Shown piece by piece: positions 19,062 through 51,548 of a stretch of 64,000 nt of DNA. A program made the translations under genes and the position numbers. Position 1 is the stretch's first letter. Each line of letters begins with the position of its first letter. The notes beneath the pieces are model-generated. The model was given only the letters and a program-made list of their open reading frames with translations, was not told the origin of the DNA and did not search any database. Source of the stretch: Sphagnum compactum (lineage: Eukaryota); NCBI GenBank assembly GCA_965153455.1, contig OZ234493.1:33470213-33534212 (forward strand), in the 5' to 3' direction.

Positions 19062-20664
19062 ATGAGTCTGATAAGGGAGAGTAAGCAGCCATGTGGGCCT
19101 CCTCTTCCTCCTCCGCCTCTTTTTCTGTGTCCAATTTCGCTGGAGATGATGCGCGACCCAGTGACTGTGTGCACGGGGATCACCTACGATCGAAGATCCA
19201 TCCAGAAATGGCTAGCGGAAGGTCACACCACTTGTCCCATCACAATGCGTCACCTGGAGAATCATACCTTGATCCCCAATCTCATCGTCCGTCGCTTGAT
19301 CCATTCCTGGGTGCAAGAACACGGCTCCGGTAGTTTGCCTGCTAGCGCTTTCGGATCACCCACCAAGCGAGAGAGAGACGAATCTGAGAAACAACAGCAG
19401 CATCAGCAGCATCAGCAGCAGCAGCAACGGTCTTCCGGTGAGGAGAACACGGCGGCGCGTGTTCTGTCCCTGTTGCGGCAGATCGCAAGAGGCGGACATG
19501 GAGTTGGAAACGCGGCCAAGAGTCTGGGGGCTTTGGTGAAGGAGAGAACGGAGTACCGCACTTGTATCGAGGAATTGGGTGGGACGCTTCTGCTGGTGTC
19601 GCTCTTGTCCCCGGAGATGCACGAGGATTGCGATGCTTGCGAAGAGGTTTTGGGTCTCCTCACGCTCCTAGCGCAGTGCCATGGTGGTACACGACAGATG
19701 GTGATGGAGCCGCAGAAGCTCGTGTGGGTAGTCTGGCATCTGGAGCAAGGGATAACCCCCTGTGCTCGTGTGAATGCGGCTGCGTTGCTGGAGAGCTTGC
19801 TGGCTTCCGATGACGATCTCTGCGCTGCTGTGGGTCACTTCCCTGGCGTTTTGCAAGGACTTGTCAAGCTGGTGAACAAAGGCGGCGGTCTCCAACAGCA
19901 CCGAGCTTCTAAGATCGCTGTCAGAACACTCTTGGCTGCTTGTCTATGCAAGGTACGAGAGAATTCTTCCACACCCATCAACACCTTCTTCCTTCGCTGA
20001 TCGCTATGCACATGTTGATGGGTGTGCAGGAACCCTAAACCCTAACCCTTGAATGCATGCTCTCGAGGAAGAAGAATTATATAGAAAATGTTGGGTTGGG
20101 GAAGAAAGAAGCAAATGCAGATCACATGCACATCCCTAATTATTTTTTCCCCTTCAACTTCTGACATGAAGAACTTCTTGGGCAAATGATTCTTTTCAGG
20201 TGAATAGAACAGCAGCAGCAGATGCAGGGGCAGTAGGGGCAGTAGTGGAGCATCTAAGAAGCAATGCAGCACGGCCAAGCACAGCAGAGAGATGTCTTGC
20301 TATATTGGAGTTGCTGTGCACCACCACACAAGGGCAAGTAGCAATCAGCCAGCATCCACTGGCAATCCCCTTGCTTGTGAAGATGGTTCTGCGAGTCTCA
20401 CCACGAGGTACTGAGTATGCAACAGGCACTCTTCTGGCAATCTGCAAATCAGGACCCATTGATATGCTCCAGGTTGCAATGCAAGCTGGTGCTCAGACTC
20501 AAATGCTGTTTCTGTTGCAAAGTGATGCTACGACACCGAGAGCAAAGCGCAAGGCTCTGGAGCTTCTCAAACTGCTGCACACTGTCTGTTGTCCTCCTAC
20601 CGTTGGGAAGCTTGTGAATGCTGTGCATTCCTGGGAGTGTTTCATAGAGATAGGAAGAAGTTGA
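19062..20664 (+). CDS. Plant U-box (PUB) E3 ubiquitin ligase with ARM repeats; exons 19062-19952 and 20200-20664
   Basis: U-box motif PPLFLCPISLEMMRDPVTVCTGITYDRRSIQKWLAEGHTTCPIT. ARM-like C-terminus (NRTAAADAGAV, RVSPRGTEYA, TPRAKRKALELLKLL). AAG|GTACGA donor and TTTTCAG acceptor in phase 0. Confidence 0.95.
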
Positions 20665-30014: not shown

Positions 30015-31397
30015 CTACTTCCATCTCATGCTACCAAGATGAATCACATCCTCATCAGTTCCTGGTTTTGAGCGAAAGCTATTGTCATTCATGTCCTTAC
30101 TTTTCTTGTCACTGGCATCCCCATACACATCCAACAGCTTTTTCAAGTTATTGAATGCCGGTTTGACATTTGTTGGGCTTTGAGAGCTCTGTTGCCCCAC
30201 AATACTGCTGCGTCCCCTGGGGCTGTGGCTTCTACGATGATCAATGTCTTCATACTGTCTCTCCTTCTCCCTCTCTCTTCTCCTGTCCCTTTCACCACTC
30301 CAGTCCCTCCTCTCCCTGCTCTTGCCATTCTCCCTCTCTCTTTCTCTGTCCCTACCCCTTGCCTTTTCATTCCCACCATCCCTAAACCTAGAATCCCTGT
30401 TGCTATCTCTATCCCTGTCCTCTCTACCCCTGCCCCTACTGTCCTCCCGGTCACGGTCTCTGCTCCTCTCCCTTTCCCTCTCTCTGTCCCGAAGCCTCTC
30501 CCGCTCCTGGTCATGTTCCCTGTCACGATCCCGGTCCCTTCCTGCAGCATCAACATCCCGAGTCCTCCGCATGTCTCTTTCCCGGTCAGAGTCCCTACTT
30601 CTCTCCCTATCTCGGTCTCTTGAATCTCGGTCAACATCAACCCTTTCTTGCCTCTTTGAACGATGCACATCGTTTGTACCATTATGCTGTGGCTCATGCA
30701 CAGGCACACTTCGTCGGATAGGTGAAGAATCTCGAGTGAATGCTCGATGAGGAGCACGCTGCCCAAATGATACAGAGAGTGCAGCTTTCACAGATGGGGG
30801 CCTGCGTGCGGTATCATCCCCACCATGACGTCCACCTGCCCCTGTAACCCCAGCAGGCTGTGTTGAGAGCTTCATGCGCTCCAAATGTGCAGTAATTTGG
30901 CGCAAAATGGGAACAGGTATGCGAGGGAAAAGAGTGTCAAAGTAGTACTGGTTCAGAAGAAGGTCCCGCACATATACACCCATGGTGGTCATCCTCCCAT
31001 TCGATCCCGGAGCAAACTCCTCATCATCTGTCACATATTGCTCAAACCAACCCCACAAAGTCTTTGGATCACCCACATACCTGAGGTACAGAAACCCTAT
31101 TGCTCTTATGTAGGGCGAATCTACATGATCCAATAATCCTCGCATCTGCTTCACAGAGAACTTCATGGTGAAAAGCTTGTACAGCAGACAGAAGGCCGTA
31201 GACGGACCCCGACAATTCCCTGTCATCCACGGCTCCACATGATCTACCTGGTTGTAGATTTCATCAACCACTTCCGTATACGTCTTCAAGCTGTAAAGCT
31301 CCTTGAAGTAGTCTGAAGAGAGTATGTTTGTGCACAGCACCCGTTCTAGCAAAGCATCCAAAGGCTTCCCACATGTCTGCACCTCCATTCTTTCCAT
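30015..31397 (-). CDS. PRP38: Pre-mRNA splicing factor PRP38 family (SRL1/PRPF38B-like) with RD/RS-rich tail; single coding exon (start ATG at 31397 or 31388)
   Basis: NILSSDYFKELYSLKTYTEVVDEIYNQVDHVEPWMTGNCRGPSTAFCLLYKLF...DSPYIRAIGFLYLRY...YYFDTLFPRIPVP is the PRP38 domain, followed by a long R/D/E/S region. Confidence 0.96.
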   Translation of the reverse strand: MERMEVQTCGKPLDALLERVLCTNILSSDYFKELYSLKTYTEVVDEIYNQVDHVEPWMTGNCRGPSTAFCLLYKLFTMKFSVKQMRGLLDHVDSPYIRAIGFLYLRYVGDPKTLWGWFEQYVTDDEEFAPGSNGRMTTMGVYVRDLLLNQYYFDTLFPRIPVPILRQITAHLERMKLSTQPAGVTGAGGRHGGDDTARRPPSVKAALSVSFGQRAPHRAFTRDSSPIRRSVPVHEPQHNGTNDVHRSKRQERVDVDRDSRDRDRERSRDSDRERDMRRTRDVDAAGRDRDRDREHDQERERLRDRERERERSRDRDREDSRGRGREDRDRDSNRDSRFRDGGNEKARGRDRERERENGKSRERRDWSGERDRRREREKERQYEDIDHRRSHSPRGRSSIVGQQSSQSPTNVKPAFNNLKKLLDVYGDASDKKSKDMNDNSFRSKPGTDEDVIHLGSMRWK

Positions 31398-31403
31398 CGC
31401 CAC

Positions 31404-31412
31404 AAACCCTAA
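31404..31412. promoter_or_regulatory. Telo-box (AAACCCTAA) next to the PRP38 start codon; a second copy at about 31979
   Basis: Exact motif seen. Telo-boxes are known to be enriched near starts of plant splicing and translation genes, but this window has a high background of such motifs. Confidence 0.45.
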
Positions 31413-31880
31413 TTTTCTCGAAAACACCTCTGTCTGTCTGTCTGTCTCCTTTCGAGAAATCCTATCACCCTCCTCTTTTTCTCTCTACAGTTTTCAATCA
31501 CTCAATGTAAATCAAAGGAAAAAATTTCAGCAAAATCTTCGAGAAAGAAAACACACACACACACACACATGCACTTTGAGAACAAGAAGAAAACCCCAAC
31601 ATATTCCAAACCCTTACCCCCACCCCTCTCTTTTCCTCTGTCTTTTTGGCGTCTTCAACACAACCAACGGCTGATAGAACACAGAATCTGCGGTACCGGG
31701 ATAGCAAAAGACAAAATCCAGAAACCAACGAGCTCGCCTTTCCTTCCTTTCTTTGTTTGCGATGGTTTCCGACGCGCCAGCCTCGACAGCAAGCATCCGC
31801 TGCGAGGGACACAAAATGAGAATTTCCGCAAACCCTCACACGTCCACAAACGCGCTCCGTCCGAACCATGAAACACTTAT

Positions 31881-47795: not shown

Positions 47796-49035
47796 CGACC
47801 GGAGCTTTGTCCCTCGTATACGCTCTGAACAAGCGAGCAAGCAACCAAACCCTTTCTGCGTTTGGAGTGTGGAGTGCGAGGAAGGCTCCGGCGATTGCCG
47901 TCTGCGAAGATTACTTTCCAAGGATGTCTTTGCTTCTGTGAATTACCCGCAGATTGTACGCGAAGCCGCCTCTTCTTCCGCAGTGTTGGGGTATGTTTGC
48001 AGCTTTCTTTTGCTCTTATTTTTTTCTTCCTTGCGTCGGCGTACGGTAATTTTCCGCTAACGTTTTATGTTCGTGGATTTCCGACGCTTAGTTTCATCTG
48101 CTGCTTCTTTCTTCTTCTTGGCGGCTCTTTACAAGTTCATATGCTCCGCAATTTTGGTATGGTTGTTTCGTTGTTTCGATCCAAAGAGTTGTGCTAGGGT
48201 TTCGGATCCCGTGGTTAGATTCTTGTTGTTGTTGTTGTTGTTTCCTCCTTCCCATCGGCGAAAGGCATGGCACGTTTCGACTGCCTTTTTCATGCGTAGA
48301 AAGAAAGAAAGCAAGCTCTTCATTATCTTTGTAGTTTAAAGCTCCATCGGGCATCCCGTGGCCAGACAACTCTTTTTGTTTTCCACCGGGGAAGGGCACG
48401 AAGCGTTTCGAACGCCTTGCCCTTTTTCCATTCGTAAGAAGCTCTTCTGCATCATCTTCTATAGAAATCAATCGCTTGTCAAACAGGGGAGACAGTTGCT
48501 GAAGAAGAGGAGTTGGTGCATATGATTGAGTAGTTTTTAATTTCTAGCTCTTTGATGCCTTTTGATGTAACTTACATTCAATTTCATGCGGCAAGTCTCC
48601 ACCCCCTGTCCATCCATTTTTTTTTCAATTCCATGAATATCAAGCTTCCAGAATTTGCCTCTTTACTGAGTCTGCAAACGCTTTCTCTTCCAACAGATGC
48701 AGCAACTTGCTGCCCTATGCATGCTTGAATGCCCTTGCATACTGGTTGGTAAGTTTCTGGTTTCTACTTAACATCTTCAACAACTTTGTGTCAGATGGAA
48801 ACCTAAATATTTGTTCCTCCACTCCGAACTTGTTTCATTTGGGATGGTCCAATTTGAGAGTTTTAGATGTAAGTTTTTTTCTGCTAAGCTTTTGTGTCTG
48901 CACTTGGTTGCAGATTATCTTCTAGTTGCTTTCGTAAATTTGTTCTTGATTTCTGATTCTGTCAGGAGGAAGACGGCGGAGAATGGTGGTATCCTAATAG
49001 CAGTAGCTGGAGTATTGAAACAACTCAACAACAGA

Positions 49036-51548
49036 ATGGCAGAGGATATTGTAGCTTATCGGGGCAAAGGGAGTTCGACCCCGGATCATGATGAAGTTCC
49101 TACCTGTGCAATGTGTATGGAGGTTCTTGGTACCTATGGAGGGCCTGCTTCCTTGACCTGTGGTCACAATGGCTGCCTGGCATGTCTTCAACAGGTCTGT
49201 TTCATTTGTCTTGGATGAGCCACTTGTTTTGCTGAACCAGGTCAGAGCTTTAGCCTGCTTTCTTCATATAAGGCCTTTGTTATGTTTGGGGATTTGTTGA
49301 TTGTGTAAAAGGTGGGTTCCACAATTGTGCAGGTTCAGAGACACTCTGCACTGCCTCTATGCCCTCTCTGCCGAACACCATTCGATGCCGACCTCACTCT
49401 CTGCCTAAATTTGGAGTTACGTGATGCACTGGACCATGCACAGGCAGCCAGATCAGCTGTGCACTTTGCAGCAGCAGAGTCTCAATGGCAGGTCTCACAA
49501 CATAAAGGTCTGGAAGGAGAGGGGCAGAAGGGGCGCGGTCGTTATCAATGTGACCTTCCTTGGCCTGAAGAAACTGGGCCCTGGATTCCAGTGACTTCTG
49601 CAAAGGGTGGGAAGGAGGGGAGCAGTGCTCTTGTTGAAGACAACAGAGGCCACCAAAGTGACTATATGGGGGGGCAGAATACCAATACAGACCTGAATGT
49701 GTGGAATGTTTTGAGGGGAGCTTTAGCTATGGTAACTGGACTGGGACGACCAGGACCTGTGGGATATGGTGATCGTGCACCTGATTGGCAGCCTGCTGGC
49801 AGTTATGGAGATGGGAGTGCAGTGTTGGACAGATATGACCTAGAGAACTCTTGGAGAAGTAGCTATGGAGGTGGCCATAGTCCCAGTGCTCCACCTCTCT
49901 TGCACAGGGGTAGTGTGGATGATATTCGAGCAGTGAGGGCTCTTCTGGATGCAGAACCTCCAGAGTGGATGCCTGACAGTGCTGCATCTGCATGCATGCA
50001 ATGTGCTGCCAGCTTCCGCCCAGTGACCTGTGGCCGCCATCACTGTCGCTTTTGTGGTGGCTTGTTTTGTCGGAGGTGCTCATTAGGAAAGTGCTTATTG
50101 CCAGTGAAGTTCCGAGAACGGGCCCCCCAAAGAGTATGTGATACATGCTTTGAAAGGTTGGAGCCCATACAGCGTACTCTGGCTGACAGGGTCAGCAATG
50201 CTGCTCAGGTGAGTAAATTAGGGTGCTGGCATACAGGGATTTGGACCATTGTTAGGGGATCTCTTTGTAGGCTGTATAAAGTGTTATCAGGAGAAGACTA
50301 TTATCAAGTTGGTTCTGCTGTTTACCCTGTGTGTACTTTTGTGTAGTTTGATCCTAATAACAGGATTCTACTGTTGGATAGGTCGCAACACACGATGTGA
50401 CAGATATGAGCTGCATGAGGGGGTGGCTCAACAGTCCTGTTGGTCTCTCCATGGAACAGGAAATTTACAAAGCTACCAACACTGTGCGCAGCTACTACAA
50501 GGTGCTTCATGATTCTCTAGCTGTCTGCAGCTTATACAATGTCTTAGGTCCATGCTGCATGAATTCAACCCTGAAACTGAAATTGTTTGGAGTGCAGATT
50601 GGGAAGCTAAAACCGGAGAGGTCGATACCTGATACTGTTCTAAAAGGAGCTCGAGGGCTAGCCATTCTCACAGTTATGAAGGCTGGGCTGATGGTCACCT
50701 ACAAGCTTGGCACGGGATTGGTTGTTGCTCGGAGAGCAGATGGTTCTTGGTCTGCCCCATCAGCTGTTGCTTCTGTTGGTCTTGGTTGGGGTGCACAAGT
50801 AAGGGTGTCTCTCGTGCATTTCCTGTAAAATTTGGATGGATGTTAATTTTCTCTCTGTTGGTTGACTAGTTGGTTATTTTACCTTTGTGAGTTGATTTTC
50901 ATCTTTGAGTCTAGAAGCATTTTGCTCTGCTGGCATACAATACGTTTCTGAACAATATCTTGTATGTTTGTATGTTTGTGCTGGAATATTTGAAATGCTT
51001 CTCTGGGCTGATTGTCACTTTACTTTCACTGTCTTGTATGGTGAAGGTGGGAGGGGAGCTGACAGACTTCATCATTGTACTCCGCACAGCAAAGGCAGTC
51101 AAAGCATTTGGTGGACGTGCCCATCTCTCATTGGGTGCAGGCATGAGTGCTGCTGCTGGCCCTGTAGGTAGAGCTGCAGAGGCAGATCTTCGTGCTGGTG
51201 ATGGTGGGGCAGCTGCTTGCTATACTTACAGCTGCAGCAAAGGTGAAAGCTCTTTTTATGGCAATTGTATGTCAAGGTCATTTGGACTATTCTTTCTTTT
51301 GACCTGCAACCCCCAGGTTAGAATTGCTCATTTTGTGGTTGTCTTGAACAGGGGCTTTTGTTGGGGTCTCATTGGAGTATAATGTGGTGGCAACACGCAC
51401 TGACACAAATTTGAATTTCTATGGAGATGCATATCTCACTGCAACAGACATATTGTTGGGTCCAGTTCCACAGCCAAGGGCAGCAGCGCCCCTTTATGCT
51501 GCACTGCAATCTTTATTTGGGAAAGTGGATTCAATCACTTCTGAGTAG
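49036..51548 (+). CDS. RING-FYVE-SYLF(Ysc84) protein, CFS1/FYVE2-like with an extra N-terminal RING; exons 49036-49194, 49333-50208, 50382-50501, 50598-50798, 51047-51242, 51352-51548
   Basis: C3HC4 RING (CAMC...CGHNGCLAC...CPLC). PSAPP motif. FYVE domain (WMPD...CMQC...RHHCRFCG..FC..CS...RVCDTC). SYLF domain (ARGLAILTVMKAG, WSAPSA, GWGAQVGGELTDF, YSCSKGAFVGVSLE). Introns in phase. Confidence 0.95.

Follow-up and report, generated by a model that had tools for sequence, protein, structure and literature searches.

A 64,000 nucleotide stretch of the Sphagnum compactum genome (assembly GCA_965153455.1, contig OZ234493.1, positions 33,470,213 to 33,534,212, forward strand; referred to throughout as the window) raises the question of whether CFS1, known from Arabidopsis as an adaptor that binds ATG8 and VPS23A (Zhao et al. 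2022, PMC9584626), can also be a ubiquitin ligase (E3). A preliminary description of the gene at 49036-51548 of the window had read it as a CFS1/FYVE2-type adaptor in which one spliced open reading frame (ORF) joins an intact N-terminal RING domain to a PSAPP motif (49882-49896), a FYVE domain and a SYLF (Ysc84) domain, and had taken this for a fusion that may be a PI3P-targeted ligase, one that both ubiquitinates cargo and recruits ESCRT-I, a function not previously described for the adaptor. Our analysis leaves very little doubt that the locus is a CFS1-type gene with a RING+FYVE+SYLF architecture. It is an ordinary CFS1 family member of the ancestral form, and one that is already annotated. 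The wider reading, which blends the identity of the gene with the ligase claim and draws on sequence comparison and analogy, appears likely: an ancestral-form Sphagnum CFS1 whose RING probably makes it a membrane-anchored ubiquitin ligase.

When the six exons on the + strand were joined by script they gave 1749 nucleotides (582 codons plus TAG) with no internal stop, and all five introns (138, 173, 96, 248 and 109 nucleotides, in order) were of the GT..AG type. The RING, the PSAPP motif, the FYVE domain and the SYLF domain of the preliminary description were all recovered in this reading frame, the RING with its full set of eight ligands. Proteins of Sphagnum fallax and S. balticum match the product of exon 2 at 99% identity. 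Moreover, the spliced model aligns end to end and without gaps to residues 31-612 of the S. balticum protein P0002 (98.97% identity), whilst the S. fallax isoform P0390 (582 amino acids) has the same exon structure and differs by 6 substitutions and no insertions or deletions. All four blocks are kept at matching alignment positions in charophytes and land plants, which is not an outcome of chance. ORFs on the minus strand beneath the gene (49727-50191, 50911-51219 and 49394-49726) had no credible Pfam match.

The likeness to Arabidopsis CFS1/FYVE2 (At3g43230; AtCFS1) lies in the aligned PSAPP, in the (G)RHHCR core of the FYVE domain and in three basic residues of the SYLF domain. In AtCFS1 the PSAPP motif mediates the binding of VPS23A (PMC9584626, PMC5561093), and the SYLF residues that were mutated in that protein (K282, R288 and K320) are kept here as K375, R381 and K413. 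The signature columns of the FYVE domain are invariant in alignments of 17 and of 78 rows, and Foldseek matched this part of the structure to the FYVE domains of endofin, EEA1 and Vps27. For the beta-rich SYLF domain Foldseek returned low-probability matches to the sigma-1 receptor and VapD; the Pfam Ysc84 model matches full-length Sphagnum proteins at approximately 1e-40. A HMMER search with exon 2 found 6754 proteins at E<=1e-3 and 22 at E<=1e-30, most of them generic FYVE matches.

The RING occupies residues 24-66 of the model (49105-49194 plus 49333-49371) and has the form C-x2-C-x14-C-x-H-x2-C-x2-C-x12-C-x2-C, its eight zinc ligands (C24, C27, C42, H44, C47, C50, C63 and C66) standing in cross-brace spacing. 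It is continuous in all of the complete aligned orthologues (28/28), each of which keeps 8/8 ligands. Exon 1 alone matches the N-terminal half of several Pfam RING models, at best with 7e-5, and stays below the cut-off because it encodes only half of the domain. Identity to the window protein among 26 RING-bearing orthologues is 73% for the RING, 71% for the FYVE domain, 70% for exon 3 and 71% for the SYLF domain, with 8-14% for the linkers. Judged by these alignments, the RING is under a constraint equal to that on the FYVE and SYLF domains. RINGs that engage a ubiquitin-conjugating enzyme (E2) are marked by a hydrophobic residue after the first ligand, a proline after the seventh and an arginine or lysine after the eighth. 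The window RING begins with C-A-M-C (hydrophobic two after C1) and ends with C-P-L-C-R, having Pro after C7 and Arg after C8; the arginine is present in 38/45 RING-bearing rows. The closest solved structures by sequence are the catalytically active TRIM RINGs (TRIM31 at 3.9e-6 and TRIM21 at 1.1e-5, then TRIM5 and TRIM25), with which the zinc ligands and the C-P-x-C-R ending line up (C-P-V-C-R in TRIM21). The likeness is one of RING subtype only, with modest E-values (4e-6 to 1e-4), and the B-box, coiled coil and PRY-SPRY features of TRIM proteins are not found in the window protein. On balance, these residues and the comparison with known ligases incline us towards the view that the RING would be a working E3.

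The alternative that survives best accepts the gene without the enzyme. Here the RING would be a non-catalytic zinc module for dimerisation, autoinhibition or partner binding, and the protein an adaptor bridging phosphatidylinositol 3-phosphate (PI3P), the endosomal sorting complex ESCRT-I and ATG8. A number of observations pull in this direction and so count against a ligase. Full-length Sphagnum proteins score below the gathering cut-offs of the Pfam RING models (23.3-23.5 vs 27.3 for PF13639, 19.8-20.0 vs 21 for PF00097); the PF13639 cut-off is passed by orthologues from Marchantia (27.7), Diphasiastrum (30.6), Selaginella (30.2) and Ginkgo (27.6). In an AlphaFold2 model of P0002, built from the 78-row alignment and without zinc, the predicted local distance difference test score (pLDDT) over the RING is only 51-69. 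The same model has a mean pLDDT of 65.8, with values above 90 in the SYLF domain and 72-86 in the FYVE domain, disordered linkers, and helices after the RING and at a conserved WNVL block. A Foldseek search of the whole P0002 model against the PDB gave no RING match. Moreover, 7/45 RING-bearing rows have Q (5), E (1) or G (1) in place of the arginine after the last ligand, five of these being rows of the fern clade (P0029, P0037, P0045, P0046 and P0048). Lastly, the core work of the adaptor can be done without a RING, as it is by Arabidopsis CFS1; both angiosperm lineages appear to have lost the RING or let it decay, and the Marchantia protein MpCFS1 still colocalises with ATG8A when expressed in Arabidopsis (PMC9584626).

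However, the eight ligands and the usual E2-contact residues have been kept from Chara to Ginkgo at the identity given above, the nearest solved relatives are active enzymes, and the arginine is retained in the large majority of rows. Ligases directed at ESCRT-I also repeatedly combine a RING with a P(S/T)AP motif, as described below. We therefore consider a non-catalytic RING unlikely, albeit the alternative with most in its favour.

A second alternative is that the gene model is an artefact, the RING exon being part of an upstream gene or of some other transcript, with the true protein starting in or after exon 2 as a RING-less CFS1. RING-less or RING-truncated entries do occur in the same clusters (P0396, P0399, P0410, P0411 and P0412), of which P0411 is carried on 360 contigs, and annotation is variable, with an S. 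fallax isoform that skips exon 3. A closer inspection reveals that the RING-less entries P0396, P0399, P0411 and P0412 start inside the RING, for instance at a Met within the domain directly ahead of ligand 7, and therefore look like 5′-truncated contigs or ORF calls rather than the products of a distinct start. The spliced 49194/49333 junction is carried by contigs of 2.5-4.5 kb from the same 90% cluster (P0393, P0394, P0398 and P0400). Three of these (P0393, P0394 and P0400) also run colinear with genomic sequence ahead of the ATG at 49036, as expected of spliced transcripts, and the contigs are thus taken as RNA-level support for the junction. Moreover, the RING and the FYVE domain are joined in annotations made independently for 4 Sphagnum species and about ten further named genera, the frame is kept over intron 1, and the constraint on the RING is that of the FYVE and SYLF domains. 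With P0002, P0390, the spliced contigs and the 28/28 orthologues all in agreement, the junction stands and an artefact of this kind is very improbable. A separate upstream RING gene was rejected on the spliced contigs, the cross-genus annotations and the conserved frame.

The RING+FYVE+SYLF gene being secure, its age can be addressed. RING, FYVE and Ysc84 were found together across non-flowering streptophytes: in Sphagnum (4 species), Ceratodon, Physcomitrium, Marchantia, Calypogeia, Diphasiastrum (two proteins), Selaginella, Adiantum, Ceratopteris and Chara, as well as in many transcript contigs and in the eukprot entry Gb_38623, which from its prefix we take to be Ginkgo. Models from Riccia, from Taxus and under the id SM000080S22955 (by its prefix presumably Spirogloea) begin inside the RING. 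The RING pattern was present upstream of the FYVE core in 28/241 rows (the window model and P0001-P0240, fragments included), none of them angiosperm-named. With cluster members added, 45/227 rows of at least 400 amino acids were RING-positive, in a set that is redundant for Sphagnum and mosses. No named angiosperm CFS1 row matched the RING pattern, a result that covers protein models; the preliminary description had likewise known of no N-terminal RING in Arabidopsis CFS1/FYVE2. When the RING region alone was used as a query, all of the proteins found (24/24) were FYVE or FYVE-SYLF proteins, and again none was angiosperm-named.

CFS2-type proteins (At1g29800 type) give a second line of evidence on ancestry. 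They share the FYVE and SYLF domains and an EETGxWIPV motif with the window protein, but are without PSAPP, read SRHHCR where the window protein has GRHHCR, and have no intact RING. Within the CFS2-type clade, non-seed proteins of fern and lycophyte type carry decayed RINGs at the homologous position, with 6/8 ligands left in P0026 and 4/8 in P0032 and one internal deletion among these two relics; angiosperm rows have nothing there. Therefore, the RING would predate the split between CFS1 and CFS2 and was lost by decay. A quick maximum likelihood tree of 45 rows, with support by the Shimodaira-Hasegawa-like approximate likelihood ratio test (SH-aLRT) only, groups the window protein with mosses. 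On this tree, RING-less angiosperm CFS1 falls inside a seed-plant clade (SH-aLRT 100) that includes the RING-bearing Ginkgo protein, a RING-bearing fern clade is sister to the seed-plant CFS1 clade, and the CFS2-type clade lies near the liverworts (support 90-93). A topology that sets the CFS2-type rows and algae apart from the other land-plant rows was not rejected by the approximately unbiased test (p=0.311). The moss gene may be orthologous to CFS1 in the strict sense, or it may be co-orthologous to CFS1 and CFS2 together, a point that counts against the main reading.

Judged from this distribution and from the tree, RING+FYVE+SYLF is the ancestral streptophyte architecture and the RING-less angiosperm CFS1 a derived state, the RING having apparently been lost in angiosperm CFS1 and decayed in CFS2-type proteins. 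A recent, lineage-specific fusion of a RING onto a CFS1-type adaptor, giving this organism a new function as the word "fused" in the preliminary description implied, accords with the characterised Arabidopsis proteins being without a RING but is scarcely credible and was rejected, since it is refuted by the taxonomic distribution of the RING form (charophytes, bryophytes, lycophytes, ferns and Ginkgo) and also sits badly with the confinement of this RING type to the one family (24/24 matches), the decayed relics in CFS2-type proteins and the nesting of the RING-less angiosperm clade among RING-bearing lineages.

If the architecture is ancestral, has it been studied before? MpCFS1 (Mp3g11370) has an identical RING+FYVE+SYLF layout and 47% identity to the window protein over exon 2, and the window gene is orthologous to MpCFS1 and to the Physcomitrium protein. 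MpCFS1 colocalises with MpATG8, and Mpcfs1 mutants are reduced in GFP-ATG8 processing (PMC9584626). The CRISPR guides given by Zhao et al. encode the peptides EVLGTHG and DFSCMTA; both are present in protein P0005, the first inside its RING, and therefore the MpCFS1 that was studied has the RING+FYVE+SYLF architecture. The searched text of PMC9584626 contains no word beginning 'ring' and no instance of 'zinc finger', 'ubiquitin ligase', 'N-terminal' or 'domain architecture'. In extracts from a survey of FYVE proteins in P. patens (bioRxiv 10.1101/765594), class II is defined by FYVE, SYLF and P(S/T)XP, and 'RING' appears only in connection with PHOX proteins; extracts from Sutipatanasomboon et al. 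2017 (PMC5561093) name FYVE, SYLF and PSAPP only. The literature searched on CFS1, SYLF proteins and Mp3g11370 assigns no RING or E3 activity to CFS1. The UniRef names of the Marchantia and Chara entries begin with 'RING', and the domain has thus already been flagged in public records. Taken together, the architecture has already been studied in Marchantia, with its RING unremarked in the printed text searched. Of the claim that the function was undescribed, the part concerning a RING or E3 role in CFS1 holds for the literature searched, whereas the architecture itself has been partly characterised as MpCFS1 (Zhao et al. 2022).

The window protein also departs from Arabidopsis in its link to ATG8. 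Between its FYVE and SYLF domains there is no canonical ATG8-interacting motif (AIM; [W/F/Y]xx[L/I/V]), the site reading WLNS where AtCFS1 has WLNL, the AIM mapped by Zhao et al. Arabidopsis and all named angiosperm CFS1 rows differ from the window protein in this respect as well as in being without the RING and without EETGPWIPV. Wherever a RING-bearing row has this site, it takes the form W[LIV]N[S/T/N/C], its fourth residue being S, N, T or C. An L at that place is confined to the RING-less CFS1 of flowering plants (82 rows); thus the loss of the RING and the gain of a canonical AIM go together. It follows that ATG8 binding by the Arabidopsis mechanism is not assured, and this too must be set against the proposed function. 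The site reads WINS in MpCFS1, which colocalises with ATG8 all the same, and binding may therefore use another site. A candidate is EETGPWIPV, an acidic run followed by W-x-x-V, which from its sequence could be an older ATG8 site. The motif is found in 73/73 CFS2-type rows and in 17/45 RING-bearing rows (bryophytes, Ginkgo and some others). It also occurs in 12/109 RING-less PSAP rows, whose ids are those of N-truncated bryophyte models and Sphagnum or moss cluster models, so that no angiosperm CFS1 row has it. Its universal presence in CFS2-type proteins argues in the opposite direction, as Arabidopsis CFS2 is reported to have no role in autophagy (Zhao et al. 2022, PMC9584626). A further conserved stretch of the linker, the WNVL block, has a mean identity of 32%, compared with 9-12% in the adjoining linkers.

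How would a ligase of this form work? By comparison with the characterised proteins of Arabidopsis and Marchantia, its FYVE and SYLF domains would hold it on membranes that carry PI3P (autophagosome, late endosome or amphisome), and from the Arabidopsis work PSAPP would dock the UEV domain of the ESCRT-I subunit VPS23. The RING could then recruit E2~ubiquitin and ubiquitinate proteins held beside it, as its own features and the analogy with MGRN1, TAL and XBAT35 suggest. The likeliest target would be VPS23 or ESCRT-I itself, or else cargo on the same membrane, and the outcome may be a tuning of amphisome maturation or of vacuolar delivery. Flowering plants would have dispensed with this built-in ligase.

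The analogy rests on three proteins whose single chain contains both a RING and a P(S/T)AP motif, the motif binding the UEV domain of TSG101 or VPS23A and the RING ubiquitinating it. In MGRN1, PSAP binds the UEV domain of TSG101, which is multi-mono-ubiquitinated, and this is needed for the fusion of amphisomes and multivesicular bodies with lysosomes (PMC4670916). TAL (LRSAM1) uses a PTAP motif, and Arabidopsis XBAT35 binds the VPS23A UEV domain through two PSAP motifs, VPS23A being degraded (PMC9400068). All three differ from the window protein in being without FYVE or SYLF domains, and with no sequence relation beyond the RING fold the comparison is a functional one only. No Pfam family of this kind was matched; the XB3/XBAT31 RING model, whose cut-off is 50 bits, scored no higher than 16.6-17, and did so in two orthologues only. 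Yeast Pib1, a ligase of the endosome and vacuole, resembles the window protein in uniting a PI3P-binding FYVE domain with a RING (PMC7055007); its FYVE domain lies near the N terminus, so that the order is reversed, it is without SYLF and PSAPP, and it too is likened by function only.

From these parts a fuller scenario can be offered, tentatively, as one that we regard as possible and somewhat short of probable. The ancestral streptophyte CFS protein would have been a PI3P-addressed ligase in which PSAPP holds VPS23 whilst the RING ubiquitinates VPS23 or adjacent cargo at amphisomes, making it a plant counterpart of MGRN1, and the Mpcfs1 phenotype would in part reflect loss of the ligase. Flowering plants would have lost the RING in CFS1, with decay in CFS2; CFS1 would at the same time have gained WLNL as a canonical AIM that replaced the older site, and the ubiquitination of ESCRT-I would have passed to E3s such as XBAT35.

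The features of the gene are collected in Table 1. At the 5′ end, the start codon is less certain, from the available models, than the preliminary description implied. The S. fallax model starts at the ATG at 49036, whilst P0400 (646 amino acids) starts at an in-frame ATG at 48844 by unspliced read-through. In the 612 amino acid models of S. balticum, S. jensenii and S. troendelagicum, a mini-exon at 48729-48748 (20 nucleotides) is spliced to 48966. The N-terminal extension is not conserved outside Sphagnum (13.7% identity). The S. fallax isoform mentioned above (P0001, 542 amino acids) skips the 120 nucleotides of exon 3 in frame and so lacks the site equivalent to the AIM as well as the first helix of the SYLF domain; this may be genuine alternative splicing or an annotation artefact.

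Table 1. Positions within the window of the parts of the RING-bearing CFS1-type gene.
Feature	Position	Strand	Remarks
5′ region with alternative starts	48729-49035	+	Three different starts in public models
Exon 1	49036-49194	+	Start codon of S. fallax model; N-terminal half of RING, zinc ligands 1-6 at 49105-49194; GT donor at 49195
Intron 1	49195-49332	+	138 nucleotides, GT..AG; splits RING between ligands 6 and 7; reading frame kept across it
Exon 2	49333-50208	+	292 codons: C-terminal half of RING, conserved helix, linker motifs, PSAPP, FYVE
RING, C-terminal half	49333-49374	+	C-P-L-C with ligands 7-8, ending at 49371; Arg directly after at 49372-49374
EETGPWIPV	49567-49593	+	Model residues 132-140; acidic run then W-x-x-V, AIM-like
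WNVL block	49678-49731	+	Model residues 169-186; predicted short helix (206-218 of P0002), pLDDT 63-64
PSAPP	49882-49896	+	Homologous to PSAPP145 of AtCFS1; aligned with PSAPP of Arabidopsis-type P0240
FYVE	49963-50163	+	Pfam E=8.2e-19; signatures WxxD, (G)RHHCR, RVC
Exon 3	50382-50501	+	40 codons: FYVE-SYLF connector, WLNS, start of SYLF region (K375, R381)
WLNS	50424-50435	+	In exon 3; aligned with AIM WLNL267 of AtCFS1
Exon 4	50598-50798	+	67 codons: N-terminal part of SYLF (K413)
Exon 5	51047-51242	+	SYLF/Ysc84 core; Pfam E=1.4e-17; pLDDT >90
Exon 6	51352-51548	+	C-terminal part of SYLF/Ysc84; Pfam E=6.4e-13; TAG stop at 51546-51548

Elsewhere in the window, two adjoining ORFs at 19062-20664 (+) encode a U-box (E=3.6e-20) followed by PUB-type ARM repeats (ARM_PUB, 4.6e-13 and 9.9e-30). 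Together they represent a gene for a plant U-box E3 ligase, and no link to the CFS1 locus was seen. An ORF of 489 amino acids at 30015-31484 (-) contains a PRP38 pre-mRNA splicing factor domain (E=5.5e-50).

CFS1 is currently viewed as a non-enzymatic bridging adaptor for amphisome formation, a view that comes from the RING-less Arabidopsis protein. Caution is due in carrying that view across the family, as RING-bearing proteins do not keep the AIM that was mapped in Arabidopsis. If the RING is active, the ancestral protein would couple membrane recognition, the recruitment of ESCRT-I and ubiquitination in one polypeptide. Marchantia and Physcomitrium, for which mutants and tools are at hand, would then be direct test beds, and the family would offer an example of an enzyme that flowering plants have pared down to an adaptor.

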